A stretch of DNA of 64,000 nt from Tubulanus polymorphus. Taxonomy: Eukaryota > Animalia > Nemertea. Positions 34,379-61,310 of the stretch are shown here, one piece after another (positions within the stretch are counted from its first letter, which is position 1; each line of letters begins with the position of its first letter). The stretch is taken from contig NC_134026.1 in NCBI RefSeq assembly GCF_964204645.1, forward strand, positions 12,113,950-12,177,949, in the 5' to 3' direction. A program made the position numbers and the translations under genes. The notes beneath the pieces were generated by a model. The model was not told the DNA's origin. It was given only the letters and a program-made list of their open reading frames with translations, and made no database searches.

Positions 34379-34613
34379 AGTAATAGGGGTAATGGGCTTT
34401 CAGGCCAAAGGTCGAAGGGTCGAGCTCATAAAAAATGAAAAACATGAAAATAATAACAATTTCTACTTGAATTCGAGCGCGCGAGAATTATTTTTCATTT
34501 TTTATGAGTTTCACTCCTAATTCAAGTAGAAATTGTTATTATTTTCATGTTTTTCATTTTTAATGAACTCGACCATTCAACCTTTAATCTGAAAGCCCAT
34601 TACCCCTATTACT
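34379..34613. repeat. 235-bp hairpin with 95-bp arms made of Polinton-like termini
   Basis: Arms at 34379-34473 and 34519-34613. Starts AGTAATAGGGGTAATGGGCTTTCAG and ends CTGAAAGCCCATTACCCCTATTACT. Confidence 0.9.
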
Positions 34614-34733
34614 CTTAAAATATTCATATACATGAATAAAATATATATGAATAACATATAAATTGATAGATTATTCAATATAAAAGTGTGAGTGAAATAA
34701 TTCATATTTAAAACATTGAATATTTATATTTGA

Positions 34734-35378: not shown

Positions 35379-35436
35379 GAGTAACAATTCTACATTATAA
35401 TTATTGAATTGAGTTAAATGATTTAAATATCTAATA

Positions 35437-36473: not shown

Positions 36474-36592
36474 AAATTTAATTGTTATTTGATTTAATCA
36501 TTTAAAAGTTTAATATTTTTAAAATGATTATAAAATATTTAATTAAAAACTAGCAAATATTTTATAAACTGTTTAATTTTTCTCTTAAATAA

Positions 36593-36811
36593 ATGGATGG
36601 TTTCATCCCAACTGGGAAAAGTGATTTGAAACATTATTTAGTAGCAGGCGGATTAATATTGGCTGCGCTTTTCTTTTATTATGAAAATATCAGTAAGGAT
36701 TTGATTAATGAAAATATAAAATTGAGCAAGAAATTAAAGAAGTTAAATGGAAACAATCACAGAAAGGATAACAATACAAAAGTTAATGATTTAAATGATT
36801 TGGAGGATTAA
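36593..36811 (+). CDS. Small single-TM protein preceded by the Polinton-type start motif
   Basis: aatttttctcttaaaTAAATG start and hydrophobic segment LVAGGLILAALFFYY. Confidence 0.55.
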   Translation: MDGFIPTGKSDLKHYLVAGGLILAALFFYYENISKDLINENIKLSKKLKKLNGNNHRKDNNTKVNDLNDLED

Positions 36812-37699
36812 AACAGCATGTATTAATTTAATTTATTCTATATATTTTGACTATAAAAATGAGTGAAAATAAGGTATTAGAAATATAACATCTAATATAT
36901 AAAAATCAACAGAATATTAAATCAATTATTATGATTTCAGGTTTATTTTCATTCTCAGTTTATACTATAAAACAGTTGTTAGAATTCTATGATTGCTGTA
37001 AAATTAGATACACTGAATTAATAGAAAATATGAATTATATTTCAGATCGAATAAATAATATTAAATGCTGTGAAATATGTAATAAAAGATATAAAAATAA
37101 AAGAGTTTGAGAAATCACATGTATATTCATGAACTTGATGAAAAATTATATGAATCAAAATAAGAAATCGACTGTTAAATTAGCTGAAAATATAAAATAT
37201 ATTAGTTGAAATGTATGAAAATAAAAGTTAATAAAAAAGGGGGGTTGAGGTATCAATGTATTAGATACCCTATTAGATACCCTAATACCAGGTATTAAAT
37301 ACGTATCAAATACGTATTGATGGTATTAAATACATATTATGCTTTATTTCTGAAAATGAAGTAACAGAAGTAATTTATGTTTTAATTCATTCAAGTATGA
37401 TATTGTAAATTCTTTACATTTGACTAGGATAATACAAGAGTGATATTAGTTAGTTGGCTTATTCAATAAGAGAAACAATGAAATAATACAAGAGTGATAC
37501 TAACAGTTAAAGTTATTGAATTTCTTGTTAAATCTATTTGAATTCTAGTCAATTCTTGTTTGCCAATAGCGCGAATAGAAATCAAAACGATTTAAATAAA
37601 AAAACAATAAGTTAAATAAGTTAGTATTAGATAAAGTAACTAAGTAACTAAGAATTCTTCCAAAACCACATCAAAAGTGTAATCAACATCCTTCCTTCC

Positions 37700-42709: not shown

Positions 42710-43052
42710 AGTAATTAGGAAATGGCGTTTTCATACCAGAGGTCGAGAGGTCGAGACACCACTCATCACAGCTAGGCTCTAGTGAGATCGGACGATTGCT
42801 CTGTGATACACATATACAGTGAGTGCTCGTAACAACAACTGCGCGTGGATAGATCGATACAGTGAGTCGCTACTGAGAACGGTTATTAACGCGTGTGCTA
42901 TTACTGTAGTACAGTGACTGCGTGTCAGCGGTGCTGGGATAAATAGATGCTGTGAAGCTTGGGTGAGAACGGTTAATAGCGTGCTTGTTATATACAAGGG
43001 GAAGTAATCCCCACTCATCACCACAAGTAATTTTTTTTCCTTATAAATGGGA
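42710..43052 (+). repeat. Left TIR, containing a ~250-bp segment absent from the right TIR
   Basis: 42710-42769 and 43011-43052 match the reverse complement of 60030-60120. CCACTCATCAC is duplicated around the extra segment. Confidence 0.9.
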
Positions 43053-43433
43053 GATAGAAAAGCATTCTTAGCAACAATAAATAACAGAATAAAACCAGCA
43101 AAAAAAACAATTTGAAATAAAAAAGTTAGTTGATGTTACAAACGAAATTGAACATAAAATATTGAAATTAGAAAAGGTTAAAACTAAATATGGAGAGAAA
43201 TTGAACATAAAATATTGAAATTAGAAAAGGTTAAAACTAAATATGGAGAGAAAGTATCAGCTAATTTGAGCTACTGTAATGTTAGTACATCGCGAGAATT
43301 TAAAGTATTTTTACCTGATAAATGGGTTTCATTGAGTACAGAGGAATTAAAAGATTTAGAAGGATTTAAAATAATCTATCATGGAAAAAATGAAGATGGC
43401 CATCATGATTTAGAAATTATTGATTACATTTAA
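43047..43433 (+). pseudogene. Small protein (possible OB-fold ssDNA-binding), disrupted by a 53-bp tandem duplication
   Basis: TAAATG start and VKTKYGEKV..FKVFLP motif. Duplicated units start at 43144 and 43197. The fold assignment is inference. Confidence 0.5.
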
Positions 43434-43531
43434 AAAAATAAATTAATAAAAATAATGAATATCTAGAATCCGAAATGACTTATCTGGACAATTTAATTGC
43501 TCCGCATAGATAGACAAAAGTAGTGAGATAT

Positions 43532-43930
43532 TCAATTAATTAAAAAAAAATTATTTTTTTGCTTTTTTTCTAAAATATTAATCCATTTTTTTATTATCAA
43601 TTTTGGAATTTCAGAAGTATTTTCATTTTTGATAGCAGTTGTTTCAGAATTATTAATATCATGAATTTTATTTGATTTCTTATACCAATTACACCCAATC
43701 AAAATGAATACAATTACAAATCCAACTGTGAAATATAGACATTTATCAAATATTCTATTATTAGAAGGAGTAGAAATAACAATATTTTCACCATTTTTAT
43801 TAACATTTTTATTACTTATTTTTTCTTTTACAGCTTTTTTATATTCTTGTGATTTAATTCCTAATTGCCGAGACCATTCAATTTGTTTCTGTGATCTCGG
43901 TTTTTTCTTCACTTCTTCCACCTTGTTCAT
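43532..43930 (-). CDS. Hypothetical membrane protein
   Basis: TAAATG start, basic N-terminus and TM segment LYFTVGFVIVFILIG. Confidence 0.65.
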   Translation of the reverse strand: MNKVEEVKKKPRSQKQIEWSRQLGIKSQEYKKAVKEKISNKNVNKNGENIVISTPSNNRIFDKCLYFTVGFVIVFILIGCNWYKKSNKIHDINNSETTAIKNENTSEIPKLIIKKWINILEKKQKNNFFLIN

Positions 43931-44468
43931 TTATTATAGAAATATTTTTACTTTCAATATTTGAAAATGTTATAACTCCAGTTGATAATAATGTCATAAA
44001 TCCACCTAATTGAAATGATAAATATCCAATCCATTTATTTAATTCGGTCATAACTGAATAATCATTTTTTAAATCAGCATATAATCTATTTTCATCTTGA
44101 ATTGGCAGCATATAATTACATAATTTACTATAACCTTTTACTACATTTTCTGATATCGCGTCATTAATTCTAGCTGTTCTCGCGGTTTCATAAATCTTAA
44201 ATAATCTAATAATTTCATCTGATTTCATTGTATCTAATTCATTATAAGTTAAATTTTTACCGATAAAATTTTTACATTTTCCAGATGCTATTAATATTTC
44301 TAATTGATGTTTACAATAAAGATAATATTCATAATTATTATTTGTTGTAACATTATTTAAAGCACCATCGTTTGGAGTTAATTTTGTTTCTGTTATTCCT
44401 AAATCATCTAAAGTTTTTTCAATTGGAACATCACCATTTTTAGATTTTATTTTCTTTTCTCCTCCCAT
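43878..44468 (-). CDS. Hypothetical Polinton protein
   Basis: 196-aa ORF with T-run/TAAATG start. The 3' overlap with the next gene suggests a terminal frameshift. Confidence 0.65.
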   Translation of the reverse strand: MGGEKKIKSKNGDVPIEKTLDDLGITETKLTPNDGALNNVTTNNNYEYYLYCKHQLEILIASGKCKNFIGKNLTYNELDTMKSDEIIRLFKIYETARTARINDAISENVVKGYSKLCNYMLPIQDENRLYADLKNDYSVMTELNKWIGYLSFQLGGFMTLLSTGVITFSNIESKNISIINEQGGRSEEKTEITETN

Positions 44469-44675
44469 TTATATAACAAAAAAATCAGTTGTGATGTTGC
44501 AACTAGAATTTAACTAGAATGTAACTAAAAATCAACTAGATTAACAAACTAGTTGAATTATTATTGTTTTTATTTATTTCTTGTTAAATCTAGTTGATTT
44601 TTGTTCCAACTACCAATAACTAGAATTCAACTAGAATGTAACTAAAAATATACTAGATTAACAAGTTAGTTGAAT

Positions 44676-45252
44676 TTAAATAAATTCATAATTAAATGGG
44701 TGTTGTAATCTAAATAGTAATTTTGATCTTTTATTATTTTTCAATTTATCCATATATTCATTATGTAAATCATGTGGAATAATATCATTTTCCCCAAGTT
44801 CATTTTTCATCGATTTTCTATCTTTATTGTAGAATAAAACTAGAAATCTTATATTGTCCCTAATGTTATCCCGAAATGTCTACCAGAAAAAGCTAAATAA
44901 CATGACTCACTCTCTCTCTCACTGACTCAATTTTTGAATCATGTAAATTTGCACAATCATCTATAATGAATAATGTATTTGATCCTTTATAAATATCTAT
45001 TGCTATTTTGATACAATTATCTAAATTTTCTTTTACTGTTTTAGGATCTAATATAATAAATTTATTATTTCTAGTAATATTTCTATCATAAGTTTGATTA
45101 AATTCATATGTTGGACAAAATAATACTATATTATCAAAATAGTTTTTATAAACAGTTTCTAATAAATTTAATATAAAATAAGTTTTTCCACAATTTGTTA
45201 CGCCAGAAATTAACATATTATGAGGCTCAAATATAAATAATTCCTTATTCAT
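44676..45252 (-). pseudogene. A32/FtsK-like genome-packaging ATPase, disrupted
   Basis: Walker A ISGVTNCGKT and Walker B LFIIDD. The C-terminus IRDNIRFLVLFY...NYEFI* follows a lesion near 44890. Confidence 0.88.
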
Positions 45253-46380
45253 TTATATATTTTTAATTTTACTTGATAATATCCATTCATTGAATTTATC
45301 TGGCCATCCAACCCATTTTACTAAAGAATATTTTTTTCTTTTAATAGTTTTTGTTTTTAATACTTTTTCAATTTTATATTCTTGTTCTAAATTGTCAGTA
45401 GTTAAACTTAATTCTTCTTCGTAAAAGTAGCCATCAACTTCTTCACCACCTAAATCTTCTAATTTATAGACATATGGTTTTGTTGTTATTACCTTTTTTA
45501 TTTTATATATTTCCCTAGTAAAATTTCGATCGTATCCTTTGTCAAATATCTTTTTATACTTAGAAATTCTAACATTTTGACCAACTTTAAATTTAGGTTC
45601 ACCAAAATCATCTACAAGAAATGCTCCATTTAAATTATTTCAAACAATTTCAGCATTTTCAGGTTTTCTAGCATCAATAGGTTTCATTCCAATAGAAGAA
45701 TGATAAGAATTATTATATCCTTCTATCAATTTTGGTAAAACATCAATCCATTTAAAAGTATTATTTGCTGTAAAGTATTTCCACATTCTTGTTCTTAATG
45801 TTCTATTAAATCGTTCAACAACTGCTGCTTTTTATCCGATTTTGTTGAAAAATATTTAATATTATGATTATCTAAGAGTTCATGAACAAGTGAATTATCA
45901 AATTCTTTTCCATCATCAAATTTTATTTTTTCTGGTTTTATTTTATCATCCGAAAGAAATTTTCTTAAAACATTTGATGTTTGTGCAGCATCTTTTCTGT
46001 AAAGTGGGAAGCTCCATACATAACGACTAAAAATATCAATTATATTCAATATCCACCAATAATCATCATTATCTTTCTTAACATTTTTCGTATCAATTAA
46101 ATCTCCTTGCCACTGTTGATCTACATAACTTACCATAGTTTTACGAGTTTTATATTTTCTAACAATTTTTTTATGTGTTGTGTATGTTGGTTGTTCTAAC
46201 ATAAATTCATTTATATATTTATATTTAACTAAATCTTGTGGGATTATCTTATCTAATTTATCTTGTTTTACTTGACGCCATATATTTTTGGTAGAAGAAT
46301 AAGCAACCGAACTCTCAGGGTTGTAATATAAATTTCTTAAATATTGTTCTTTAGTATTAGGAGTTTTTTTTACCACCCAT
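45253..46380 (-). pseudogene. Retroviral-like (rve) integrase with C-terminal chromodomain, frameshifted
   Basis: QWQGDLID, IIDIFSRY, KFDDGKEF, AAVVERFNRT and chromodomain YKIEKVL..LVKWVGWPDKFNEWI. Frameshifts at about 46370 and 45830. Confidence 0.92.
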
Positions 46381-46410
46381 TTATATATCGTTAATTTTAA
46401 CTTTATATTT

Positions 46411-47652
46411 CTAATATTGAATACTATTTAATTGAGAATTTACAATATTTAATTGCGCGTCAGATATAATATAAATATGCATTTTAAAATTTAAGCTTCC
46501 TTTTTTCTTTTTCATGAATAATTGTATTCCGTCTTTAGTGTTCTGTAGTTTTTTCCCAGAACCATGTAATGAATTATCCTCTGTTGTTCTAAAATCTAAT
46601 CATAATGCATATTTATTGCCGGTATAATAATCAATTTGATTAATATTACAATTTTCAGATGATTTTACTTTTTCATTCATAAAATGTTTTCTAATTTCTG
46701 GCCATTGATCAATCATTCTCATTCCTTGACAAAATATTTCATTTGGTATTCCTTCGAAAGTTATTTCTACTTTTGTTATTTCAGGATTATAATAATTATC
46801 TACCTTTATTGCGCCATTAGAATATGTTGCAATGGTGAAAAATATTAATAAACTTTTAATAGATCTTCTTGGGAAGTTAATATTCTCATTAATTATTTCA
46901 TCATTTGCATTAATAGTTATAGTTTGAAATTTATCAATATAATCATATAATAATGAAAATGCTTGATTGTATTGAGTTTGAATTGTGTTAGCAATATTTT
47001 CATTAGTTACTGTGTTATATTCTAAACATATATTCGATAATTTATAACCCATATCTTTAACAACGCTAGATAATACAATTTCATTTACAAATATTATCTC
47101 AAATATAATATCTTCTTGAATTACATATTTATATAAAGGTGCATTATTATTTATCAATTCAAAGTCTAATGGAATTTTATATTTGCTTCCATAAATCTTT
47201 TTAATCAAATTATCTACGCCATTAGCTACTACTGCATTATTGGCTTCAGATCTTAATTTATTTTGGTTTTCCGATTGAATGCCTTGAAATATCATATTAT
47301 TTCTATTTTCTTTAGTTAACCATAAATCTTTATAATGCATAAATAAATTATAATCATCTAATGAGAAAACTGTTTCTGGACCAATCTTTATAGTTAATTT
47401 TTTAATCAAATATCTTCCAACATTATCAACAACATAATTATTATTATTACCAGTTACTTTTATATCGGCTGATAAATAAATACTATTTGGAACATAAAAA
47501 GTATTTTGTGTTAATCTAGGAATTCTAACATATAAAGTTTCATCGGGATTAATATTTGAAGGATTATGAGTAATTATATGATGTGATCTTTCTGCTTTAA
47601 TAGCATTAGATATTCTAGAAATCTTAGAAGGACTTATATAACTCCCACTCAT
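46411..47652 (-). pseudogene. Major capsid protein (double jelly-roll type) with one premature stop
   Basis: HNPSNINPDETLYVRIPRL and VVDNVGRYLIKKL. The frame continues past TGA at 46600 as LDFRTTEDNSLHGSG..HIYIISDAQLNI, giving about 413 aa. Confidence 0.8.
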
Positions 47653-47672
47653 TTATTTAACAAAAAAATTAA

Positions 47673-49116
47673 TTATTTATTTTTTATTATTTTTTCTTGA
47701 TATCTTTTTGATATCATATTCACTAACCCAAAAATAATAGCACTTACAAGTGTAATTAAAAATAAAATAATATGTTCAGCAGCAAAGTTAAGAATATTAC
47801 CTGCAGATTTCAATATAAAACCAACAATTGATGCAATAATTCCTGGTAAAGCTGCAGCAGATTTTTTAGATAGTTCCCATAAATATTTTGCTAATTTCTT
47901 TAAACCATCCTTAACTTTATATTTTATAGAATTATTATCATTCGGGGGTTTTTCCGGTTTATTGGGAGTAGGAGTAGATTTCAAAGAATTTGATATTGCT
48001 AAACCAATTGTTGTAAATAACATAGTTACAGCTGTTAGAATTGAAAGAATTGTTATTCCTTCTAATTTAAATAATAACTTTATTCTATCTTTTAATGATA
48101 TTTCAGAATTTGGTTTAATCAACAAATCTTTAAAAATAACTTAATAATCTATTAATATTATAATCATATGATTTTAATAATAATTAAATTTCTTCTTTCT
48201 GTACTTCTAAATTATCTTTTAAATTATTAATTTCTTTTTCTAATCGTAATTCTTTTTGCCTATATTCTATTTCATCAATTACTTGATGATCTAAATCAGA
48301 CTTTTATTGTTCTATTTCTTTATCTTTATCAGTTAATTCTTTTTCTAAAAATCTAATTTTAAAATCTCTTATGCTTCATTTCTTATACTAATAATTTCTC
48401 TAATTGCTTTATCAGAAATTATATTTAAATCTTCTAATTGTTGATCTGTTGCATCAATTAATCCATTCGGTAAAAGTTTTTCAATTGGAACTTTATTTGA
48501 TTTAAGTTTACTAGTTTTGGAAGTTATATTCTGTTCAGAAGTTGTTTCTGTTTCTGATTTCTTTTTGATTATTTCAAATAATTCATTAATTCTTTGTTTA
48601 AATACGTCTATATCATTACCAGTTAATTCTTGTTTTATAACAGCAGTTATTACATTACTATTGCTAATTCTTTTAATTCTATCTGGATCTAAATCACTCA
48701 AAGTTGATTTTGTTAATATTTTATTTTTATTATTTTTATAAGTGATATCAATATAATAATCACCTTTCAAATGATAATACCATTATTTTACCATTATCTA
48801 AAAATTTTAATTGATCTGCTAAAGGTCCAACGTCTTCATCATTTATGTTAAGTTTAGAATTTTCAATTATACGTTCTAATTTAGGTATTTTGTTTAAATT
48901 ATCTAAATCTTGTTTTACTAAATCTGGGTCTAAATTTTCAGGATTTAATTGTGATTCTGCATTTTTAATATAATCAGGCATATTCAAATTATTATTATAT
49001 TCTGGCTCATTACCGTCATTAAAACTTGTTTCACTAAAATCAGGCGGTTGTTCATCAGTTATGCCAGGTTCATCAAAATTATCCATTCCAATATCTTCTC
49101 CACCTTCTACATCCAT
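47673..49116 (-). pseudogene. Coiled-coil protein with hydrophobic/amphipathic C-terminus, split over several frames
   Basis: Single TAAATG start at 49116 and consecutive ORF pieces. C-terminus LFKLEGITILSIL...AAALPGIIASIVGFIL..FAAEH. Confidence 0.65.
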
Positions 49117-49132
49117 TTATATAATAAAAAAA

Positions 49133-49882
49133 TTAAAATTTAAAATATAATATTCCTCCTATAACAATTCCTATACAAGTTAAAGCTAATTTAGTATTTT
49201 CATGGGATTTATTATCATCATTTAGTTTAATTATTTCATGTTGAATATTATCAGTTTTTATATCTTCTGATGTATTGTAATCTTTTATTTTAGAATCATT
49301 ATTTAATTTAATATTATTAGTTTTAGTTTCTGTTGATTGAATGTGTTTTTTATTTTTTTCACCTTCCATTAATTTTGGAGCAGTAATAATCTTTTTATTT
49401 ATATCATTCAATCCAAATGAATTATTTATTGTTGCAGTTTTAATTAGATTATTGTAACCAATTATGTTTCCCATCTTTAATACTAAATCATTAGAAATAA
49501 TTAATAGATTAGGGCCTATACAATAATTTAATCTAATATGTGATTTATCTAAATAATTTTGATATCTTACAATGTTTTCTGGAATCGATCTATTTTTATC
49601 ATTATGAATTGAATCTTCAAATAATACTTTAAATTGTTTCTGCGCATCGAATGAGGTGTTATCATTTCCAATTATTGGTGATCTTGTTTCAACTTGCGCA
49701 CCTAAAATACATATCAAATAAGTTCTAATTGATTGATTTATTCTTTGTATTCCAGCTTTAGTAAAACCTTCACTATTTTCTAAAATGAAATTAACCCAAC
49801 CATTATTGTTTTGTTGTTGTATATTATTATAATATTTTGGTAATTCATTCCAATTTAGTGTTCTTATATCTGAATTTGTCAT
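49133..49882 (-). CDS. Hypothetical Polinton protein with C-terminal TM anchor, possibly one gene with 49882-50457
   Basis: 249-aa ORF with GFTKAGIQRINQSIRTY motif. Start overlaps the upstream stop (TAATG). Confidence 0.65.
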   Translation of the reverse strand: MTNSDIRTLNWNELPKYYNNIQQQNNNGWVNFILENSEGFTKAGIQRINQSIRTYLICILGAQVETRSPIIGNDNTSFDAQKQFKVLFEDSIHNDKNRSIPENIVRYQNYLDKSHIRLNYCIGPNLLIISNDLVLKMGNIIGYNNLIKTATINNSFGLNDINKKIITAPKLMEGEKNKKHIQSTETKTNNIKLNNDSKIKDYNTSEDIKTDNIQHEIIKLNDDNKSHENTKLALTCIGIVIGGILYFKF

Positions 49883-50457
49883 TATTTTTCAAATTCTTTA
49901 GTATATAATATTCCTAATCCACCCATTGTTCCAATTTTTGCTCTAAAATCTTTATTTGAATTAATATTAAATTCATTACATATTTTATAAAACTTAGAAA
50001 AATTAATATTATTATTTAGTTCTTTAAAATATTTTGAACCTGGTAAAGGACATTCTAATTCATCTAATATTAATTTTATTTGAAAATATGTATGAAATCT
50101 AAAAAGTGATAACATCAATGGTAAACTTGGTTTATTCAAATGATCATTCCAACTTATTCCACATCCTGTTGTTGCGCAATAAACAGCAAAATTTAATTGG
50201 TTCTGCCAATACTTCATATTAGATTTTAATAACCATTGTTTTGCCTCATTTAAATTTTTAAAATTAATTGTATACACATGAAATATATTTTCCATCTTTA
50301 CATGAAAATTATTACTTTCAGTAACATAAATATATAAATCAATTAATGAATTTAAAACTTCATTTCTATATGTAATATCTTTATTAAAATCTATTGCTGG
50401 AATATTATATTTAATTGATTTATTGTATTGGAAAGCTGTTGGAAAACTATCTACCAT
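49882..50457 (-). CDS. Hypothetical Polinton protein
   Basis: T-run/TAAATG start and motif WQNQLNFAVYCATTGCGIS..FRFHTYFQ. Confidence 0.65.
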   Translation of the reverse strand: MVDSFPTAFQYNKSIKYNIPAIDFNKDITYRNEVLNSLIDLYIYVTESNNFHVKMENIFHVYTINFKNLNEAKQWLLKSNMKYWQNQLNFAVYCATTGCGISWNDHLNKPSLPLMLSLFRFHTYFQIKLILDELECPLPGSKYFKELNNNINFSKFYKICNEFNINSNKDFRAKIGTMGGLGILYTKEFEK

Positions 50458-50472
50458 TTATATAATAAAAAA

Positions 50473-50891
50473 TTAATTCTTTTAATAATTTATCTTGTTC
50501 TTCAACTGTTATATGGCCATTTAAACTTATTATATAATCTAGTGTATTCTTTAATTTATTAATTTCTTTTATATTAGTTTTAATTTTTTCTTCATTACTT
50601 TTTATATTTAATTTTGAACTTATACCAGTTAAAACACTTGAACTTAATCCTAATACGCCAATTGATAAAGCTAAAGGTGTTAATGGACTGAATATTGCTA
50701 GAAATGTTATAACAGAACTAATTGTAACCGAACCACTAATAATAAAATAATATATAATTTTAGATTTTAAATATTTTTTCTTTTTAACTTTTAAATCATT
50801 TTCAAATTATAATATTTGTTTCTCTAAATATGTTTTTAATTTTATTTATATCATGAGGAATGATATCAATATTATCAACTTTATCTTCCAT
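50473..50891 (-). pseudogene. Small two-TM protein, frameshifted
   Basis: T-run/TAAATG start MEDKVDNID and hydrophobic IIYYFIISGSVTISSVITFLAIFSPLTPLALSIGVLGLSS. Confidence 0.5.
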
Positions 50892-50910
50892 TTATTTAGA
50901 AAAAAAATTA

Positions 50911-51334
50911 CTAATTAGTAAATTTATATGCTACAAATATAACAATAACTGTTCCACCTAAAATCCAAATTATTTCATATTTCTGTTGTTCTTTACTTGG
51001 GGTATAATAATCTGATAATTTAGGTTTGTATAGATGTAATTTTTCTTTATTGGTTACCGCGTTATATAAACTCATTGCATCATCGACTGATTGAAAATCT
51101 CTATGTGAAATCTTCTGATCATATAATTCCGCGTTAATATAATCCATATAGTTTTGTCTCTTTTCTCTATATTCTTCTGCAGCTTTATTATATTTTTTCT
51201 AATGCTAAGTTATGTCTTTTTTGTTCTGATAATGAACCATTTTTATCAATATGCTTAAATAAATAACCGCCACCAGTAAATGCTAAAGCGTTAACAATTG
51301 CCGATCCTATAATAGTTATAATTGCAGAAGCCAT
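50911..51334 (-). pseudogene. Small Polinton protein with hydrophobic N- and C-termini, frameshifted
   Basis: TAAATG start MASAIITIIGSAIVNALAFTGGGYLF..EQKRHNLALEK joins ORF 50911-51147. Confidence 0.6.
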
Positions 51335-51358
51335 TTATTTAGTAAAATAATTACGTAT

Positions 51359-51580
51359 TTATATGGGAGGAATATATTTTTGTTTTTCTAAATAATCAAT
51401 AGTTAAATTAGATAAAGTAACTGCAAATGTTAATTTTAAGATATCATTTATATCAAATCTATCAACATTAACACTTCGCATTTTAAATACTTTTTTTAAT
51501 ACCATTGAATAACCAACAGTTCCAACTGATAGTAATGCTCCATTATATAATCCAGTTATTATCCACTTATTATCACTCAT
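51359..51580 (-). CDS. Small hydrophobic Polinton protein
   Basis: T-run/TAAATG start; 73 aa ending DYLEKQKYIP. Confidence 0.65.
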   Translation of the reverse strand: MSDNKWIITGLYNGALLSVGTVGYSMVLKKVFKMRSVNVDRFDINDILKLTFAVTLSNLTIDYLEKQKYIPPI

Positions 51581-51937
51581 TTATTTATCAAAAAAATTAC
51601 TATCTTCAAAATATTTAGTTAACTTATTTATGATTATTTCAACATTTATTTCATTACTAGTTTCATTTGTATATATTTCAATTATTATTTTTTTAATATC
51701 AGCGATGATAAAATCTTCATCTAATTTATAAAATCTTAAAGATTCTCTAATTAAATTAGTAAACTTTTCTACATTTAAAGTTTCTTTATCTATTGTTGTT
51801 TCATACTCAAATGTTGTTTCATTAAAAAATGTAATATTTTTGATATGAGTTATTACATCATTAATGTTGAATTTCATTTCTTTCTCACGTTTCAAATCAA
51901 ATCCGAAACATATACTCGGTCCAACAGTTATATTCAT
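51581..51937 (-). CDS. Hypothetical protein
   Basis: T-run/TAAATG start. Its TAA stop abuts the next ATG. Confidence 0.6.
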   Translation of the reverse strand: MNITVGPSICFGFDLKREKEMKFNINDVITHIKNITFFNETTFEYETTIDKETLNVEKFTNLIRESLRFYKLDEDFIIADIKKIIIEIYTNETSNEINVEIIINKLTKYFEDSNFFDK

Positions 51938-51953
51938 TTATATAATGAAAAAA

Positions 51954-52709
51954 TTACTCTTTACATCTTTTAACTAATTCATAAATTACAGGAAAGTTAT
52001 TCAAATCAATTAAATATCCATTGTGATTTCTTATTTCTAATTTAAAATTATTAAATTGAGGAATACAAGGTTTAAAATCACATTCAGCTAAATTATAATT
52101 TATTTGCGTTCCAAATTGTTTAATATTTTTTAATGGTTAAATATTTAATATACTAGAATTACAAATTGTATCTTTAGTTGCTTCAAATGTTTTTGTTGGG
52201 TCAATTAAATTGCAATGAATATAAAAGTGTGTAAAAGGTATTATATTTGAGCTACCTTCTGCGTTTCCAGTAACAATACGCGATTTAATTCCTAACATTT
52301 TAGCTATTGGTTTGTTTACCATAAATTTATTTTGTTCATTGGCTAACTTTATTTTAATTTTATCAGAACTATCACTTTTTATAAATCTATTTGAAAATTT
52401 ATCTTCACTTTCAAGTTTTAATCGTGCTTTCCGATTAATTTCTTGGCCTAATGTTTCTAAATTATATAACCCTGGTTTTAAAAATAGATGAAACCATTTA
52501 TTTATATTTCCAATATGAATTAAAAAGTCTCTTTGTTCAAAAGTTTTAGCCGATATATTATAAAAAGAGTTACATAAACTTATATTAACTAATTTTAAAT
52601 CAACACAATTCTTAAATTCTCTATCTAATTGAACTAGTAAATTATGTGATTTATAATTTGTAAGTTATCTAGAATCAACAAATATTCTGTATTCTTTTAA
52701 TTCACCCAT
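51954..52709 (-). pseudogene. Probable minor capsid (penton) protein, frameshifted
   Basis: MGELKEYRIFVDS, SFYNI, LKPGLYN, FYIHCNLID and LEIRNHNGYLIDLNNFPVIYEL fit a single jelly-roll penton pattern. Confidence 0.65.
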
Positions 52710-52767
52710 TATTTATAACACAAAAAAATTACCTCTCATCACCACTGGTAATTTTTTTCCCTAATAA

Positions 52768-53815
52768 ATGGATGAGAAGATACCATGTGAAATTTGTGGT
52801 GAACTTCTAAGAAAAAATAATATGGCTCGACATATGAAAAAACATAATGAAAATTATAAACCCCCTAAACTAAACTGTCCAAAATGTAATAAATTATTCT
52901 CAAGAAATTATGTTAAAAAACATTCCGAGAAGTGTAAAATTAATGGCGCAACGGCTAATGTTGATAGTAATGAAAGTAATAGTAATTCTGTTGAAGTTGA
53001 ACCTGAAATTATTTGGAAAAGACCTTTCTTATTCTATGACAAGGATAATATGAAAGATCATTTCTGTGCCTTGTCAAATGAAATTTAGTCCTGAAAATAT
53101 AGAAGCTTGGGAGAATCATCAATTTCGTGAAGTACATATAGATAAAATTTCTAATAAATTTGAAGCAGAATTCAATGAAAGAAAAAATAGTTTATTAGAA
53201 AAAATAAAATATGAGAAAACGTTACCAGATAATAAAGAAACAGTTGAAAAGTTAGAAAAACAATATAATGAATTAACAAGAAAAACATATTATTGTAAAT
53301 ATTGTAAATTTATTATTACAACAAGTAATTCAAATCTACATAATAGAACAATAAAACATAAAGAAAACGTAAGAAAATACCAGGAGCTTAATGAAGATCT
53401 ATTACCAATAGATTATGAACACAAATGCCCACAATGTAATTATGCGACCTTAAGGCAAGAAGGTACTGTGTTATTTTGTAATGAATGTGGATGGCAAAAG
53501 AATTTATGGGGTGAAGAAAAAACTAGAGATTTTCTCATAGAACCTAAATCAGATTATCTAGATGAAATTTTTAAAATATTTTCTATAGAAGATCATACAC
53601 CAGAATATAAGCAATGGCTTGAAAAAATGAAAATAATAGAAAATAAAAATGGTGAAATAACTAAAAAAGATATTATAAAAACAATTATTCCATCAACATT
53701 TAACACAAAACAAAAGAAAATGTATTTATATTTATTATTTAACGATTATTATGAAAAACCTAAATTAACAGAAGAAGATATGGAAAATATAAAAAGAACA
53801 TTCAAACAAATATGA
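52768..53815 (+). CDS. Multi-zinc-finger protein (two overlapping ORFs, probably one frameshifted gene)
   Basis: CEIC..RHMKKH, CPKC..H..KC, CKYC..HNRTIKH and CPQC..CNEC. Extended start motif upstream. Confidence 0.7.
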
Positions 53816-54094
53816 ATGTATCATTTGGAAAATAGAATAACAGATTCAATTAATTATGAATTCTTTTTAAATAAGATTGTAAATTATTTAAACATCGATA
53901 TTATAATTCCATTTGACGAATTAACAAACAAAAAGAAACAAAGAGAGCGATATGAAATGTGGTACAAGATAGAAATTTATTTAAATGAGAAAAATGAAAT
54001 GGAAGAACCTAAACAAATTATACGAGAACAATTAAATGAAAATGAAGAAGCCAATAGTGATTTCGAGTATGATGATATTGATTTTCTGTTTTAA
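53816..54094 (+). CDS. Hypothetical acidic protein, possibly the C-terminus of the upstream gene
   Basis: 92-aa ORF in frame immediately after the TGA of 53066-53815. Confidence 0.45.
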   Translation: MYHLENRITDSINYEFFLNKIVNYLNIDIIIPFDELTNKKKQRERYEMWYKIEIYLNEKNEMEEPKQIIREQLNENEEANSDFEYDDIDFLF

Positions 54095-56584
54095 TGGCCA
54101 TAAGGTAATGTTTTTATACCATCATCTAAAATATGCCTTTTATCATCAAATGGATTCAAACTAGTTTTTTCAACTTCATTAATGTACATCTCGTGATCTT
54201 CTGATCTTAAACAATTCATTTTATGTTTCATTACAATTGAGTTATATAAACACTTTATATAATCTTGAAATTCTATATGTTTATCAACCACATGTTTTGT
54301 TATTCCTTTTAACTTTTTAGCTTCATGATCTTTTGTTCTGTAACTATACATTTTACTTCTTATCCCAACAAATTCAATCATCTCATCACCCCCTAATTCA
54401 TCTTTAAATTTACCAGGAATCTTTTTATTATCTTTGCTAAATAGTTCATGATCTTTGGGATAATTGCTAAAATCAAAATGATGTTTTAATGTTTTTAAGT
54501 CTTTTGTTATGTCATTTGTGTTGATTTTTAGTATGTAGGCATCCGTATTGAAGCAAATTAATGGAAATCCACAGTTGAATGTGCCATCTTCAGTTGATAA
54601 ATCATAAACATAATCTGATGGGTTATATATTTCAAATAAATCTTTAACTTCTTCAGTTAAATCTTTTTCTGTGTGGCTTAAATTAAAGCAATTTGGTTTA
54701 GATTTAATCAATCCAATATTCATATTGAAGCCTAATGAATTACATAATATATCTAACCCTGATATAGCAACTTTTCCTTTCTGTGCAAAGGTTATCTTTT
54801 TATCCTTTGTAAATTTTTTAGCACCATCTGCTGCGTAGAATCCAATGAAGAACCATTTTCTTAAATCATTTTTTGCATTTAATACATAATCTGGAACTAT
54901 CTTTTCTTTAGTTGAAGTATTACTTTTCACTATTGCATGAATATAGAATTCATCATTATATTTTATAGCAAAATCTTTAGGATTATTTACAAGTATTCTA
55001 TAAACTGCTGATGATTTCATAACATCCATGATTCTAAATGTTTTATGTGAATAAACTTCTTCACAGAATTTCTTAATTCTTTCTAATAATTTCAAGTCTT
55101 GATTGCATAAATACCAACAATATTTAATACCCCAAACATAATTATACACGCCTGCTGAACCATCACCCATGAAAAATCCTTTGATAAAATATTCTTTTTA
55201 TTCAGGTTTCAGGTTCTATATTATAAATATTATCAATTATTTCATCAAATGACATATGATTCATTCTTTGGAAAAATCTTTTATGTAATAATTCATCTCC
55301 AATTTTTATATCAGTTGGTTTTATTTCATCACCATTTCGTTTAATTAAACTATGATCTTCTGTAACATCTACAAACCCTAATTTAGTTCTAACTCTATAG
55401 ATTTTCTTATTTGTTTTATGCCTAATAATATTCTTTAATTTTTTCCATCCATTTCTTGTCCAAACATCCATTAAACCATTTATTTGTATTAATTCTTTTT
55501 CACCATATGAAATATAACATTCATTTTGTTTTGGAATTATTTCTGAAATTCTTCTTATCAATATTTTATTATTACATTTTAATAATATTGGGGTGTCAGC
55601 TGTAACAGAATCAAAATATAATATTTCAATATGCTTTTCCCCAAAAAGTGGTTGTAAAACATTATAATAAAAATCATGCATTAATAATTTTGATACTTCT
55701 AAAACAGTTGAACCAATGAATATAGGTTTATTAAATTTCATTGACGTTCTTTTTAATTTAACTTTAAATAATCTTCAAATCTTTTATTTCCTAAATGTCT
55801 AGGACTTGATTGTAAATGTCTTAATCTTTCAGAATTATTTACTAATTCAATATCATTTCTATTTCTAATGTTTTCACATGTTTCACCATAAAAACTATTA
55901 TACATTAATTTGAAGAAATCTTTTTCAAAATCTGTTTTTGATATGGTTCTCTGTTGAGTATTGAAATCTATATATTTTTCTAACCACTTCGATTGATTAA
56001 ATTCAATATATCTATGTACTTTCTTTAATTTCATTCCTTGTTTTAGATAAAATTTTAACATTCTATAATGAACAATATAATTGTACTTATTATTTTGAGT
56101 ATTAATTTTTCTGTAAAAACATGATCTTTCGGTTTTATTTTCTTCTGGTATTCACTAAATAACTATCATCTACGGTTAAATGTTCTGGGCAATAAGGTAA
56201 GTTTATTGTTTTAAACATTATATTTTTAGGATATTCTAAATCAACTACAAAGAAATAACCAATTGGTGCTTCATCTTTTAAACTCGCAATTGCGCTTTCC
56301 CAATCAGTTTTATCATCATTTTCAACTTCTGTTAATATAAAATTTTTATATGGTTGAGGTTGCATCATTGCCCAACCATATAAATTATTGGCGTCAATAT
56401 ATAATAATTTATATTCATCATTTGCTTTAAAATACCTATCTCCCATAACACCACTAATTCCACCTCTAATTGATTTTTCAAATTATAAAACCATATCTGG
56501 TTCTTTTAATAAATCTAATTTTACATTTGTATATTTTTAACCACATTGCCAGGTTAAACCAGGACTTGAATAACAATAACAAGG
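54091..56584 (-). pseudogene. pPolB C-terminal half (copy B), intein-containing and frameshifted
   Basis: YIDANNLYGWAM (motif A), KLMYNSFYGET (motif B), YFD|intein|TDA (motif C), GKFKDE, RSKMY, KLKGI and FDDKR..TLPYGH. Confidence 0.92.
54547..55609 (-). mobile_element. Intein with LAGLIDADG homing endonuclease in pPolB motif C (~354 aa, one frameshift near 55200)
   Basis: Block A SVTADTPILL, block B VDVTEDHSL, block C IKGFFMGDGS, block E FFIGFYAADG, block F YVYDLST, terminal ICFN followed by Thr+1. Confidence 0.93.
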
Positions 56585-57471
56585 GTTGAACCTATAAATA
56601 TTGGTTTATTAAATTTCATGGACGTTCTTTTTAATTTTACTGCTGTTAAATAATCTTCAAATCTTTTATTTCCTAAATGTCTAGGACTTGATTGTAAATG
56701 TCTTAATCTTTCAGAATTATTCACTAATTCAATATCATTTCTATTTCTAATATTTTCACATGTTTTACCATAAAAACTATTATTCATTAATTTGAAGAAA
56801 TCTTTTTCAAAATCTGTTTTTGATATTGTTCTCTGTTGAGTATTGAAATCTATATATTTTTCTAACCACTTCGATTGATTAAATTCAATATATCTATGTA
56901 CTTTCTTTAATTTCATTCCTTGTTTTAGATAAAATTTTAACATTCTATAATGAACAATATAATTGTATTTATTATTTTGAGTAAGTATTAATTTTTCTGT
57001 AAAAACATGATCTTTCGGTTTTACTTTCTTCTGGTATTCACTTAAATAACTATCATCTACAGTTAAATGTTCTGGGCAATAAGGTAAGTTTCTTGTTTTA
57101 AACTTTATATTTTCAGGATATTCTAAATCAACTACAAAGAAATAACCAATTGGTGCTTCATCTTTTAAACTCGCAATTGCGCTTTCCCAATCAGTTTTAT
57201 CACCATTTTCAACTTCTGTTAATATAAAATTTTTATATGGTTGAGGTTGCATCATTGCCCAACCATATAAATTATTGGTGTCAATATATAATAATTTATA
57301 TTCATCATTTGCTTTAAAATACCTATCTCCCATAACACCACTAATTCCACCTCTAATTGATTTTTCAAATAATAAAACCATATCTGGTTCTTTTAATAAA
57401 TCTAATTCTACATTTGTATATTTTAAACCACATTGCCAGGTTAAACCAGGACTAGAGTAGCAATAACAAGG
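55707..57471. repeat. Diverged ~880-bp tandem duplication within polB (55707-56584 and 56585-57471)
   Basis: The segment PCYCYSSPGL...KPIFIGST is encoded twice, with substitutions and small indels. Confidence 0.95.
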
Positions 57472-59481
57472 ATCAACATTAAAATGATTCAAATTAACTT
57501 CTCTAAATTTTTCAAATATGTCAGCCAATATCATAACATCTGATTTTAAATATAAATCAACTAATTCGCCATGATTTTTCATCTTAAAATGGTTCCAAAT
57601 ATTTAATGTTCTATCAAAAACTTCGTCTTTCACATACTCCTCTTTTAATTTATCATAAAATTGATCTTTTAATAATTCTGTTACATTAAAATCATCATGT
57701 GTTTTATAAAATGAATAAGGAATTGCGCCTTTATATCTCAATAATTTAAAATCTTGTTCATTTGGATAATAATATCGAGTTATAATAAAATCATTATCAA
57801 CTAAACTTTTTGATAAATTATCTAATGAACTTGCTAGAAATCTATAAGAATCTAAAAATCTAATACAACCAAATTGAAATGAAATATAATTTTCAGATGT
57901 TTTAGCTAATAGTTTAAAATCATATTTTCTTACATTTACACCATTCATAGCATTATATTCTTCTATTTCTTGATTAATTGCGCCCAATTTTCCCGATAAT
58001 TGTTTTATAAATAGATGGGTATCATATCCTGATAAATTATGAAATAATATTGGTACGAAATTTACTTTTTTAGCTTGTAAATTGCAATCTTCATGAGCAG
58101 CTCCACGATATTTTGAATTCAAATGATCATGATCTCTAACTCTTTTATCAAATGAATAAAAACGTTTTTCACAATAACAACAATGAGTTGCATAATTAAA
58201 ATCAATTTCATCTTCTTTTGTCATAACTATTCTTTTATTTTTGTTTAATAATTTTGTAAAATCACTTTCTAATTCAATCATTTTCTCACAAAAATCATTA
58301 ACTACATCTTCACCTCTAAAAGAAATATATTGACTTTCATATAATTCAGGATAATTTGATTTTATATAAATTCCATAAGCAGCAGCTCTTTGATGAACTT
58401 TTTTAATTGTATTTATAATTGGTGGGTCTTGTATTGTGTCTTCATTTAATTCATTTCCTTTATCCATTGATTTTAATAATTGCTTTTTGTTATAAATTTC
58501 TTTTCTATCTTGATCAGTTAATTCTTTATTCAACGATTCAAAATCCCCATAAATTACAAATGGAACAATATTTTTAAATTTATGATTAGTAAATTTCAAT
58601 TTATAATCTTTTTCTGTTGGCATTATTAATTTACAAAAATCTTTATTATCACATAATTCTTTATGTTTTAATAATGTATTCTCAGTCATAAATTTAGATA
58701 AACATTTTCTACATAGATAAATTTTACGATGATGATCACTTTCTGTTCTAAAGAATAAATCAATTTGTTTTAACCACATATAATGTTCATTTTCATCTTT
58801 TTTGTAATATAACAAATCTATAGCATTTTCATCATCATAATATTCTGTTAAATATAAAGCTTCCAAGGTATAATCTTTAATATTTTCACCTTTTGTCTTT
58901 GGTAATTGCATTAATTCGAATACATTTATTTTTAAATTATTAATTTTTTCTATTTTGGGTATCATTTTTATAGTTACTGGATATTGATCAATTTTATATA
59001 ATGTTTCATATTTCCGGTAATTTGTTATTCTAAAACTATGTGTAATATCTTCTGTTGGGTGTAAGCAACTAATAATTGACCATAGAAAACATTTATTATC
59101 TTCATTTTGAATATTTATTACTGCTTTTGTTGTAAATGGTAATTGAATATAAGATGATGCTTTAATATCCTTTTCTGTTGTAAAGTTTGAATCATTTTTA
59201 AACATTTTATTACTTTTTGATGTTTTATTCCTTTTTGTATTATAAACATTTAAATCTAAATATATAATTTCATTCAATGTTAAGCCAGAACCCTCAAAAT
59301 ATCTTTCTTCAATATGACGTTTAAATTCATTTAATATTTTTTCTAACTTCTCTTTTATTTGTGTTTTTGAAATTATTTCTTCAGAGAGTGTTTGAATATT
59401 ATAATTCATTTTTTCTTCTGACTTTATAAAACTTACTTTCCCAGAGATACTAATTTTTGGATATTCAACATCTGTTATCAA
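56554..59481 (-). CDS. Protein-primed family B DNA polymerase (copy A), truncated before motif C, with inserted endonuclease VII/HNH domain
   Basis: NEDNKCFLWS, ExoI YGDFES, CCYC..VRDHDH..YRGAAHEDCN, ExoII FHNLSGYD, ExoIII YLKSDV, motif A YIDTNNLYG and motif B KLMNNSFYGKT. Confidence 0.95.
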   Translation of the reverse strand: MITDVEYPKISISGKVSFIKSEEKMNYNIQTLSEEIISKTQIKEKLEKILNEFKRHIEERYFEGSGLTLNEIIYLDLNVYNTKRNKTSKSNKMFKNDSNFTTEKDIKASSYIQLPFTTKAVINIQNEDNKCFLWSIISCLHPTEDITHSFRITNYRKYETLYKIDQYPVTIKMIPKIEKINNLKINVFELMQLPKTKGENIKDYTLEALYLTEYYDDENAIDLLYYKKDENEHYMWLKQIDLFFRTESDHHRKIYLCRKCLSKFMTENTLLKHKELCDNKDFCKLIMPTEKDYKLKFTNHKFKNIVPFVIYGDFESLNKELTDQDRKEIYNKKQLLKSMDKGNELNEDTIQDPPIINTIKKVHQRAAAYGIYIKSNYPELYESQYISFRGEDVVNDFCEKMIELESDFTKLLNKNKRIVMTKEDEIDFNYATHCCYCEKRFYSFDKRVRDHDHLNSKYRGAAHEDCNLQAKKVNFVPILFHNLSGYDTHLFIKQLSGKLGAINQEIEEYNAMNGVNVRKYDFKLLAKTSENYISFQFGCIRFLDSYRFLASSLDNLSKSLVDNDFIITRYYYPNEQDFKLLRYKGAIPYSFYKTHDDFNVTELLKDQFYDKLKEEYVKDEVFDRTLNIWNHFKMKNHGELVDLYLKSDVMILADIFEKFREVNLNHFNVDPCYCYSSPGLTWQCGLKYTNVELDLLKEPDMVLLFEKSIRGGISGVMGDRYFKANDEYKLLYIDTNNLYGWAMMQPQPYKNFILTEVENGDKTDWESAIASLKDEAPIGYFFVVDLEYPENIKFKTRNLPYCPEHLTVDDSYLSEYQKKVKPKDHVFTEKLILTQNNKYNYIVHYRMLKFYLKQGMKLKKVHRYIEFNQSKWLEKYIDFNTQQRTISKTDFEKDFFKLMNNSFYGKTCENIRNRNDIELVNNSERLRHLQSSPRHLGNKRFEDYLTAVKLKRTSMKFNKPIFIGSTLVIVIQVLV

Positions 59482-59525
59482 ATCTAGTATTTTTTCTATT
59501 ATTTCATTAAATTTACTATAATCTT

Positions 59526-60035
59526 CTATTGTTGTACCTTTAAAAATCTAAATATAATAGCTGCAGGACCAATTTTACTATGTAATGTTTCTAAGATTTC
59601 AATTGTATCTTTTATTTCTAGTGAATCAATATAATTTCTAACATTTTCCATGTAAGGTTTATTTGAAATGGATTTAGTTTTTGAAGTTGATTCTTTTACT
59701 TGTTGAGGTTTATCATCAAAATAATCTATTCCTAAAACATTATTTCTCAAATTTTGATGGTGTTTTTCTGTTTCGAGATGTCTATTATAATTCCTTTTTG
59801 TTATAAATTCATCACAAACTTCACATTTTATTTCATTCACATTCATATTTTCTAATCGTTCTTTTCTTTCATTGGAATTTTCTGGAGTTTCAAAATCTAT
59901 TACATTTTTTATATGATTTGCAGTTTTTTCATGTCGTGTTTTATTAGATGTATCGATGTATTTTTTACAATATTGACAATAATATTGATTTTTATTGACA
60001 TTATTGTTTTCTAGTTGGTGTTCATTCTCCCCCAT
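59526..60035 (-). CDS. Two-zinc-finger ORF, probably the frameshifted N-terminus of pPolB
   Basis: CQYC..RHEKTANH and CEVC..RHLETEKH. Carries the only TAAATG start upstream of the pPolB ORF, which itself begins at TTG. Confidence 0.7.
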   Translation of the reverse strand: MGENEHQLENNNVNKNQYYCQYCKKYIDTSNKTRHEKTANHIKNVIDFETPENSNERKERLENMNVNEIKCEVCDEFITKRNYNRHLETEKHHQNLRNNVLGIDYFDDKPQQVKESTSKTKSISNKPYMENVRNYIDSLEIKDTIEILETLHSKIGPAAIIFRFLKVQQ

Positions 60036-60120
60036 TTATTAGGAAAAAAAATTACTTGTGGTGATGAGTGGTGTCTCGTCCTCTCGTCCTCTGGTATGAA
60101 AGCCACATATTCTAATTACT
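60030..60120 (-). repeat. Right TIR of the Polinton
   Basis: Reverse complement reads AGTAATTAGAATATGTGGCTTTCATACCAGAGGACGAGAGGACGAGACACCACTCATCACCACAAGTAATTTTTTTTCCTAATAAATGGG. Confidence 0.92.
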
Positions 60121-60139
60121 CTGATGATATACCGAATTC

Positions 60140-61310
60140 TTTTGACATAAGTCTATGATCGGTGCTGGTAGTTCATTGTTGATAAGCTGATATGCGTGTC
60201 TAAGTATTTCTAACTGGATCATGTCTTGGAATTTTAGAATTTTTAATTTGCGAAATATTGGATCTGTGGGGCTATTGTATGCTGATTTAGAAATAATTCG
60301 AACGGCTTTTTTCGAATCTGGACAGGTTTCTTTTTCAGATAAGAGGGCCCAATGAGATGAGTGAGTACGTAAAATGGCAATGGATATAACTGAAATAAAG
60401 TTGTCTTAAACAATATGTAGGTACTAAATGTTTAACAGAGTTAATTGAATAAATTTGACTAGCTATTTTGGTGCAGATTTTACTAATGTGTAAATTGAAA
60501 TCAAGAAACTCGTCTAAATGTAATCCAAGGAAGCATGTTGATGATACTAAATTAAGTTCCTTGTTGTCTACTTTATCGTATAATCTTGATTCTTAATATT
60601 TTTGAATATTTTTAATTCTATTTGGTTTAAAAAGAATTACTTTTGTTTTAGAAATGTTAACAGTTAAATTATTAGCAGTAAACCAATCTTGTAGTATATT
60701 CAAGTCATTTTCAATGGTTTGTATCAGATAATCAATTGAGCTTCCGCTAATATATACGGTCGTGTCGTCGGCGAATAAGATAGGTTTACATTTTTTCAGA
60801 CACATGTGCATATCGTTAATGTATACTAAAAACAGTAATGGTCCTAATACGGAACCTTGAGGTATACCGTAGTTAATGTGTGATATTTCAGATTGAATAC
60901 TGGAGAAGTTAACATACATTGAGCGCTTTTCTAGGTAACTTTTAAACCATGACAAAACATTTCCTCTTATACCATATACATATAATTTATGAATTAGATA
61001 TTCAATATTTAGGCAATCGAATGCTTTACTCAAATCAATAAATGCGGCTAGTGTAAAACAGTTAGATTCAAATGATTTTATTATATATCCTATTAGTTCC
61101 ATGCTAGCATGGCTGGTAGCATGGCCAGTTCTAAAACCATATTGACTTTTATATAAGATAGAGTACTTAATCAAATAGCCATATAATCGCTTATGTATTA
61201 TCTTTTCAAGAATTTTAGAGATGGTTGGCAATAGTGATATCGGTCGATAGTTTTCAAAGCTCCTTTTATCGTCTCTTTTATAGATAGGTGTTACACTGGC
61301 TATTTTAAAT
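60140..61310 (-). pseudogene. CR1/L2-group LINE reverse transcriptase fragment
   Basis: YRPISLLPTISKILEK, QYGFR, DLSKAFD, GIPQGSVLGP and LFADD. Confidence 0.92.

Follow-up and report, generated by a model that had tools for sequence, protein, structure and literature searches.

Every gene of a decayed Polinton/Maverick element in the genome of the nemertean Tubulanus polymorphus is preceded by a promoter-like signal of poxvirus type, which we show to be real and shared across a whole clade of related elements. The element lies in a 64,000-nucleotide stretch of contig NC_134026.1 (assembly GCF_964204645.1, positions 12,113,950 to 12,177,949), henceforth termed the window. Polintons are described as occurring nearly always in animals, and no virion of an animal Polinton has been seen so far (bioRxiv 10.64898/2026.06.19.733378). 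This clade-wide 23-bp signal makes testable how animal Polintons are transcribed and whether any of them depend on a helper virus. We consider the chances about even that a co-infecting cytoplasmic large DNA virus, probably a pox-like one, transcribes the genes of the element in trans.

The initial annotation of the window, made from the sequence alone, had listed 14 gene starts with the hexamer TAAATG, most of them shortly behind a run of T residues. The hexamer is present at all 14, and a run of six to eight T precedes ten of them, those at 43930, 45252, 46380 and 51334 having none. A 15th start missing from this list, 52709 on the minus strand, carries TAAATAATG, in which TAAAT is kept and the ATG lies 3 nt further on. 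Across the 15 starts, TAAAT(G/A) invariably covers the start codon, and 11 show the T6-8 run, with a spacer of 5-7 bp in 11/11 cases. The resulting layout of ~23 bp comprises TAA at -19, the T run, 5-7 bp, and TAAAT across the ATG. In ATG-aligned columns (n = 14), T at -19 is found in 13 starts, A at -18 in 12, A at both -17 and -4 in all 14, and T at each position from -16 to -10 in 10-13. N-terminal homology to relatives backs the annotated starts for most genes. As to the TAA doubling as the previous stop codon, among five junctions checked, the TAA of the hexamer at 51580 is the stop of the upstream gene (gap 0), and at 49116 the upstream gene ends on the TAA at -19..-17. Between the starts at 52709 (minus strand) and 52768 (plus strand), an internal copy of the inner terminal inverted repeat (TIR; 52731-52778) forms a near-symmetric, two-way promoter-like unit.

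Enrichment over shuffled sequence, proposed earlier as a check, depends on what is counted. The hexamer by itself shows no enrichment (51 copies in the element, 52 in the 43.5-kb flank, 38±6 in dinucleotide shuffles), and we dropped its count as evidence. The composite T5+TAAATG, in contrast, occurs 11 times in the element against means of 2.1-2.9 (maximum 10) in four sets of 300 shuffles, among them 2.5±1.5 (maximum 7) for dinucleotide and 2.9±1.7 (maximum 10) for 5-mer shuffles. The same composite is absent from 43.5 kb of flanks (an AT-rich island described below excluded). Placement is equally specific: TAAATG marks 14/15 gene starts and 37/669 other ATGs (Fisher p 4e-16), and among the 51 TAAATG sites the TAA at -19 accompanies 11/14 gene starts and 1/37 others (p 9e-8).

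Comparison with other elements, also proposed earlier, extended the signal beyond the window. Capsid alignment retrieved 23 metagenome loci, of which L019-L023 (short decayed matches) were excluded; open reading frames (ORFs) of relatives were set mechanically as the first ATG after a stop, with at least 100 amino acids (aa). TAA directly precedes the ATG of 52/66 ORFs in 15 close loci and, once the near-duplicates L006, L009 and L012 are removed, of 43/56 ORFs in 12 contigs, against a background of 6% in both sets. Motif-bearing relatives include loci with a G+C (GC) content of 36-44%. By comparison, a sister lineage of similar GC (L015, L016 and L018) shows it at 0/10 starts (p 5e-6), and L015, the sole sister locus in the tree, falls outside the clade (99/99) that unites the window with the motif-bearing loci. 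A matrix built from the 43 relative sites placed all 14 claimed window starts within the top 15 of 2552 ATGs, a ranking that is not fully independent because the training set includes some orthologues of window sites; the other top-15 site, 36593, lies in the separate AT-rich island. Since the motif is near-intact in lineages whose capsids are about 50% identical, whose GC spans 20-44% and which retain many open frames, it was under selection through that whole history. More distant polymerase kin are mixed, with TAAATG at 7/7 starts of L025, 0/9 of L024 and 0/1 of L026. The polymerase of L025 (9 kb) is 32% identical to that of the element and L024 is similarly distant; the motif may extend beyond the capsid clade or be patchy.

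The element has a candidate late factor and no RNA polymerase. Homologues span 93% of it with a largest uncovered gap of 355 nt, so that an RNA polymerase gene would not fit, and a Pfam scan returned no match to one, in agreement with the initial annotation. That annotation had also called the element intronless and AT-rich. Because its genes align end to end with unbroken ORFs of relatives, we likewise regard it as without introns, and its GC is 24%. The gene at 52768-54094, whose three ORFs correspond to a single gene in the homologue P0099, is predicted to encode a VLTF3-like late transcription factor, identified through P0100. This 35% identical homologue (E 3e-32) matches Pox_VLTF3 clusters at 0.95 in the Atlas (27/30 hits), and its moderate-confidence model (predicted local distance difference test, pLDDT, 66; 4 alignment rows) resembles two VLTF3 models, those from Tetraselmis virus 1 (Foldseek E 2.5e-4) and cowpox (E 7.7e-4), with no match in the PDB at E<=0.001. 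The direct Pfam score for VLTF3 (PF04947) is below cut-off, with E 0.0066 on one piece and nothing on the read-through. Used as a query, the VLTF3-like protein retrieved 0/1474 candidates in a word-index search and 3 in a full scan. VLTF3 is reported from some Polintons (PMC11131425, PMC8502044).

Two further gene-level observations bear on viral contact. A search with the polymerase intein of the element yielded nine longer proteins, namely two protein-primed PolBs (pPolBs; P0102 and P0103) and seven RNA-primed PolBs whose inteins occupy the same catalytic motif and are 28-39% identical to the window intein. One of these RNA-primed PolBs has an 84% relative on a contig of a giant-virus metagenome-assembled genome. 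An intein common to giant-virus-type PolBs suggests past co-infection; endonuclease inserts in Polinton pPolB are attributed to intein invasion in PMC11161782. Relatives L007 (10340-10981) and L001 (2898-3380) encode a deoxynucleoside kinase (E about 1e-31), a gene typical of large DNA viruses, which we count in favour of transcription by such a virus.

If a helper virus does read the element, the T-rich block at -19..-10 would act as core and TAAAT as initiator. Transcription would start inside the AAA, with slippage adding a poly(A) leader, and the template T at -3 would be harmless and never enter the mRNA because of this start and the slippage-made leader. All genes, polymerase and integrase included, would come on together at the late phase of the helper, as in mavirus; the VLTF3-like protein of the element would help bring the helper polymerase to these promoters, and integrated copies would be silent between infections. 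Within this proposal we assign about two thirds of the weight to a pox-like helper and one third to another nucleocytoplasmic large DNA virus (NCLDV). Defence of the host, which the initial annotation had added, lies outside it and is unsupported. A wider version, in which the whole clade of animal-integrated Polintons would be poxvirus virophages whose own VLTF3 steers the helper polymerase to pox late initiators, we hold only as a tentative possibility. Several points weigh against a pox-like helper, or against any helper. The two intein-sharing PolBs examined are Pol-delta-like, with no pox or asfar polymerase in their best 60 PDB hits, and the giant-virus contig examined has TAAATG at 0/8 starts. 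We found no subunit of a pox RNA polymerase among 76 of the 98 listed relative ORFs (capsid pieces, one kinase and a few overlapping ORFs omitted). When the viral collection was scanned twice for exact motif patterns, each scan returned two contigs; in none of them is the motif the rule (<=3/12 starts), and we judged these matches to be chance. TAAA also matches TA(+1)NA, the early initiator of African swine fever virus (ASFV); the motif is short and AT-rich, hence convergence is possible; and mriyaviruses, presumably nuclear viruses that lack an RNA polymerase, are described as keeping VLTF3 (PMC11253617). One scanned contig, L030, looks NCLDV-like, with genes judged by eye to encode an RNA polymerase and a ribonucleotide reductase, and has TAAATG at 3/12 starts, too weak a pattern for us to retain it as helper.

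The signal could in principle act on RNA rather than on transcription. The least probable of the readings we weighed is a purely translational one, either an AT-biased start context or TAA-ATG stop-start coupling on polycistronic RNA, to which the TAA stops at 51580 and several L007 junctions and the lack of TAAATG enrichment as such would lend themselves. Against it, the motif is present in both TIRs and at divergent pairs, where no gene ends upstream (six true divergent pairs in relatives are spaced 19, 24, 28, 30, 64 and 72 nt from ATG to ATG), and the block at -19..-10 is fixed. TAAAT is retained where the ATG shifts, both at 52709 and at 4/13 non-TAAATG relative starts (p 8e-4 against a background of 3.5%); several of the remaining nine are internal pieces of cut or broken genes. 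Its absence from the 43.5-kb flank as a composite, and of TAAATG from the sister lineage, points the same way. The base at -3 is T in 14/14 starts, where the Kozak rule has a purine. We also regard RNA processing as very unlikely. TAAT followed by a T run resembles a branch point and pyrimidine tract, as for cis- or trans-splicing, but no AG occurs in the last 15 nt before the ATG at any of the 15 starts. Alternatively, the T run might end the upstream transcript, as the initial annotation had stated for poxviruses and asfarviruses, and ASFV is reported to end over half of its mRNAs at U7 (PMC7163114). Among 14 convergent 3' ends, two of them from probably spurious ORFs, T5 occurs at 5 against a whole-locus background of 15%, a marginal excess (p 0.049), whereas TTTTTNT occurs at 1 and T7 at none. 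T5 instead stands upstream of 7/12 divergent and 10/30 tandem starts (background 4.6%), and T runs lie in both TIRs, so we rejected a general terminator and find the T run better read as the T-rich core of a late-type promoter. TATA-like words at -29 or -37 are found at 2/15 starts. This evidence supports a motif that behaves like a transcription signal of the poxvirus post-replicative type, unlike a translation context.

Granting a promoter, it might be private and helper-free. On this account, the main alternative to a helper, which we consider somewhat unlikely, the VLTF3-like zinc-finger protein of the element recruits host RNA polymerase II in the nucleus, and the pox likeness reflects a captured factor-promoter pair or convergence. 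Beta- and gamma-herpesviruses use initiation factors of their own. The factor is encoded by the element, reads of one organism contain many diverged copies of this integrating family, and the viral-collection scans found no helper. The presumably nuclear, polymerase-less mriyaviruses, described as keeping VLTF2 and VLTF3 (PMC11253617), keep this account alive. What speaks against it is that the gene of the factor itself, the polymerase and the integrase all bear the same signal, leaving no separate early promoter to start the cycle, and that a start within TAAAT would give a leader of ~2 nt unless slippage adds As, as described for viral polymerases. It is improbable, in our view, that the motif is a relic of a lineage once helper-dependent, with present copies being fossils or spreading otherwise and the motif unused. 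Most genes of the element are broken, its terminal repeats match each other at 85-95%, and few reads are nearly identical to it (see below); the near-intact motif across divergent lineages with many open frames speaks against disuse. Transcription by a co-infecting virus remains the reading we prefer.

By its ends and gene set, the 17.4-kb unit is a Polinton/Maverick (Table 1), with a protein-primed PolB, an rve integrase, TIRs, a double jelly-roll capsid and an A32-like ATPase, and its home is probably Maverick group 2. Its GC contrasts with 38% in the left flank, the fall running between ~43 and 60 kb. Both inverted arms begin AGTAATTAG, bounding 42710-60120. A ~240-bp insert at 42770-43010 splits the left TIR; it has a repeated 10-mer on both sides and resembles a small mobile element that produced a target duplication of its own. 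Polinton target-site duplications are about 6 bp long. The 6-mers flanking the element, CACTTG and CTGATG, agree at 3/6 positions and form no clean target duplication; we take this for an old copy and infer its ends. Most genes carry frameshifts or stops, and the window copy is dead. In one DNA run of the organism (1.93 Gb), 4652 reads fall on 51900-53300 at a depth of ~90-670-fold, of which 145 are 99% alike; the element therefore belongs to a multi-copy, diverged family. Since 321 reads (run X7) depart from the window sequence at 52710, many sister copies differ upstream of the 52709 gene. The one long intergenic stretch in the element contains a 59-bp direct repeat (44501-44559 and 44618-44676, 92%).

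Table 1. Positions of the element, its genes and its start-site motifs in the window.
Feature	Position	Strand	Details
Decayed Polinton/Maverick element	42710..60120	.	17.4 kb, inverted ends and gene set
Left TIR	42710..43054	+	arm matches right end at 85% and 95%; closes with motif and ATG
Right TIR	60028..60120	-	closes with motif and polymerase ATG
A32-like packaging ATPase, broken	44679..45252	-	Pox_A32 E 3.6e-7; 65-81% to relatives
rve integrase, broken	45253..46380	-	PF00665 E 5e-11
Double jelly-roll major capsid protein, premature stop	46411..47652	-	73% to L007
Zinc-finger and VLTF3-like late transcription factor gene, three pieces	52768..54094	+	one protein in P0099
Protein-primed PolB, broken, N-terminal zinc finger and endonuclease-VII-like insert	54091..60035	-	PF03175 E 1e-18
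Intein with LAGLIDADG-type endonuclease, broken	54547..55609	-	at polymerase YxD/TD catalytic motif
Motif T8 + 5 bp + TAAATG, in left TIR	43027..43049	+	gene 43047-43433
Motif, A-rich, without T run	43928..43950	-	overlaps upstream coding sequence
Motif T7 + 6 bp + TAAATG	44466..44488	-	
Motif, A-rich form	45250..45272	-	precedes A32-like ATPase; overlaps integrase end
Motif, A-rich form	46378..46400	-	precedes rve integrase
Motif T7 + 6 bp + TAAATG	47650..47672	-	precedes major capsid gene
Motif T7 + 6 bp + TAAATG	49114..49136	-	
Motif T6 + 6 bp + TAAATG	50455..50477	-	
Motif T8 + 5 bp + TAAATG	50889..50911	-	
Motif, interrupted T run + TAAATG	51332..51354	-	
Motif T7 + 6 bp + TAAATG	51578..51600	-	TAA doubling as upstream stop
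Motif T6 + 7 bp + TAAATG	51935..51957	-	
15th site, T7 + 6 bp + TAAAT	52707..52732	-	divergent partner of 52768
Motif T7 + 6 bp + TAAATG	52748..52770	+	within inner-TIR copy 52731-52778
Motif T8 + 5 bp + TAAATG, in right TIR	60033..60055	-	precedes polymerase
Motif copy outside element	36573..36595	+	before 72-aa ORF in AT-rich island; rank 3 of 2552 ATGs

The capsid homologue P0007, 54% identical to the window capsid, was modelled from a 40-row alignment as a double jelly roll (pLDDT 85). This model aligns with a PBCV-1 capsid chain (Z 26.8, root-mean-square deviation 3.4, 347 aligned), and the fold matches NCLDV and virophage capsids equally, at 10-15% identity. Capsid queries gave no match in the viral or prokaryote collections, nor did P0102 and P0099 in the viral one. 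Two capsid homologues of about 50%, P0043 and P0046, stand under a Bartonella assembly name and are probably host-derived contamination. P0102 aligns to the polymerase across 59523-54094, and the polymerase start is at 60035; Endonuclease_7 is found in the polymerase kin L025/L026. The polymerase gene contains a tandem duplication of ~880 bp (55707-56584 and 56585-57471, 96% identical). Homologues in L007 also exist for the gene 43047-43433 (L007:125, 55%) and the 52709 (minus-strand) gene (L007:565, 44%). No Pfam match to an adenovirus-like cysteine protease was obtained in the window or close relatives, and a remote form among the unassigned genes is possible.

No host gene was recognised in the flanks of the element within the window. 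The perfect motif copy at 36573 lies in an AT-rich island (34620-37600, 23% GC) that comprises a ~1-kb array of 24-nt units and a 214-aa ORF with a zinc-finger-like motif at its end. The island gave no clear protein match, with all Atlas hits of its ORF 34734-35378 under 0.9, and is possibly what is left of another element with the same signal. Next to it, a 235-bp miniature inverted-repeat element (34379-34613, arms 93% alike) has ends that begin AGTAAT, as those of the Polinton do, and is possibly a non-autonomous derivative. Transposon debris in the flanks (12302-13798, 17418-18458, 32999-33733, 60593-61102 and 62331-63503) includes a PF13843 transposase, an ISXO2-like transposase, pieces of reverse transcriptase of long terminal repeat and long interspersed nuclear element type, and an unassigned 390-aa ORF.

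With the motif as a sequence marker, helper-dependent Polintons could be told from autonomous ones. Should a helper read it, an unrecognised pox-like virus is predicted in the host. Were the whole clade virophages of poxviruses, Polintons in a genome would be the fossil trace of an undescribed poxvirus-like lineage that infects their host, and waking them could blunt the infections of that lineage. Should the promoter be helper-free, host RNA polymerase II would be reading a private promoter driven by VLTF3, which would provide a handle on VLTF3 in polymerase-less viruses.

Among known systems, the layout matches that of vaccinia. Its late promoters are described as a T-containing core, 5-7 bp, and TAAAT followed by G or A (PMC5294985), equal to the core, spacer and initiator of the element. 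Vaccinia intermediate promoters are described as an AT-rich core 12 bp from TAAA (PMC12917281), to which the A-rich sites, about 12 bp from TAAA, are similar. An intermediate-versus-late two-class code for the A-rich and T-run sites is a possibility, downgraded because two of the four T-less sites overlap upstream coding sequence. Unlike vaccinia, the element has its signal on all genes, shows an extra conserved TAA at -19, is integrated, has no RNA polymerase and is known from sequence. For ASFV, TA(+1)TA is described as the late initiator (PMC7163114). TATA precedes AATG in 7/14 starts of the element and T7 is missing at the convergent ends; an asfar-like reader is possible, as TAAA fits the early form, though the invariant TAAAT points to poxviruses. 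Slippage-made 5' poly(A) leaders are described for vaccinia and yeast linear elements (PMC6211774). The latter, pGKL1/2, are likewise pPolB elements, in which a TAAAN initiator yields such leaders; they differ in encoding both an RNA polymerase and a capping enzyme, in using ATNTGA as upstream element and in lacking a capsid.

Mavirus, whose genes all carry the late promoter of its helper (PMC6723459), belongs with CroV to a group of pairs, including Sputnik/mimivirus and Gezel-14T/PgV, in which one helper-type promoter is described on all or most genes, replication included (PMC6723459; bioRxiv 10.1101/2022.07.28.501842). Those systems have protist hosts, Imitervirales helpers and proven dependence, whereas the element combines a pox-type motif with a dependence that we infer. 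A study of entomopoxvirus occlusion bodies described Polinton-like viruses in them and proposed these as the first hyperparasites of poxviruses (PMC11296320). These viruses, AHEV_PLV1/2 and CBEV_PLV1, are Polinton-type as well, and one of their lineages falls, as a divergent branch, in the Maverick group-2 capsid clade. Their case rests on co-packaging and gene sharing, that of the element on its promoter-like signal; 'promoter', 'TAAAT' and 'transcription' do not occur in the main text of PMC11296320. With Polintons/Mavericks (Polintoviricetes; adintoviruses, PMC8502044) the element shares pPolB, rve integrase, A32-like ATPase, double jelly-roll capsid, inverted ends, a length of about 17 kb and multi-copy integration, and differs in that every gene bears one pox-type signal of fixed spacing. 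The main texts of PMC8502044, PMC11131425 and bioRxiv 10.64898/2026.06.19.733378 do not contain the word 'promoter', and the literature searched, which excluded most subscription papers, contained no report of TAAAT-type promoters in Polintons. Poxvirus-associated Polinton-like viruses and VLTF3 in some Polintons were already known; new here are the pox-type promoter-like signal on Polinton genes, the VLTF3-like gene in this element and a polymerase intein that it shares with giant-virus polymerases.

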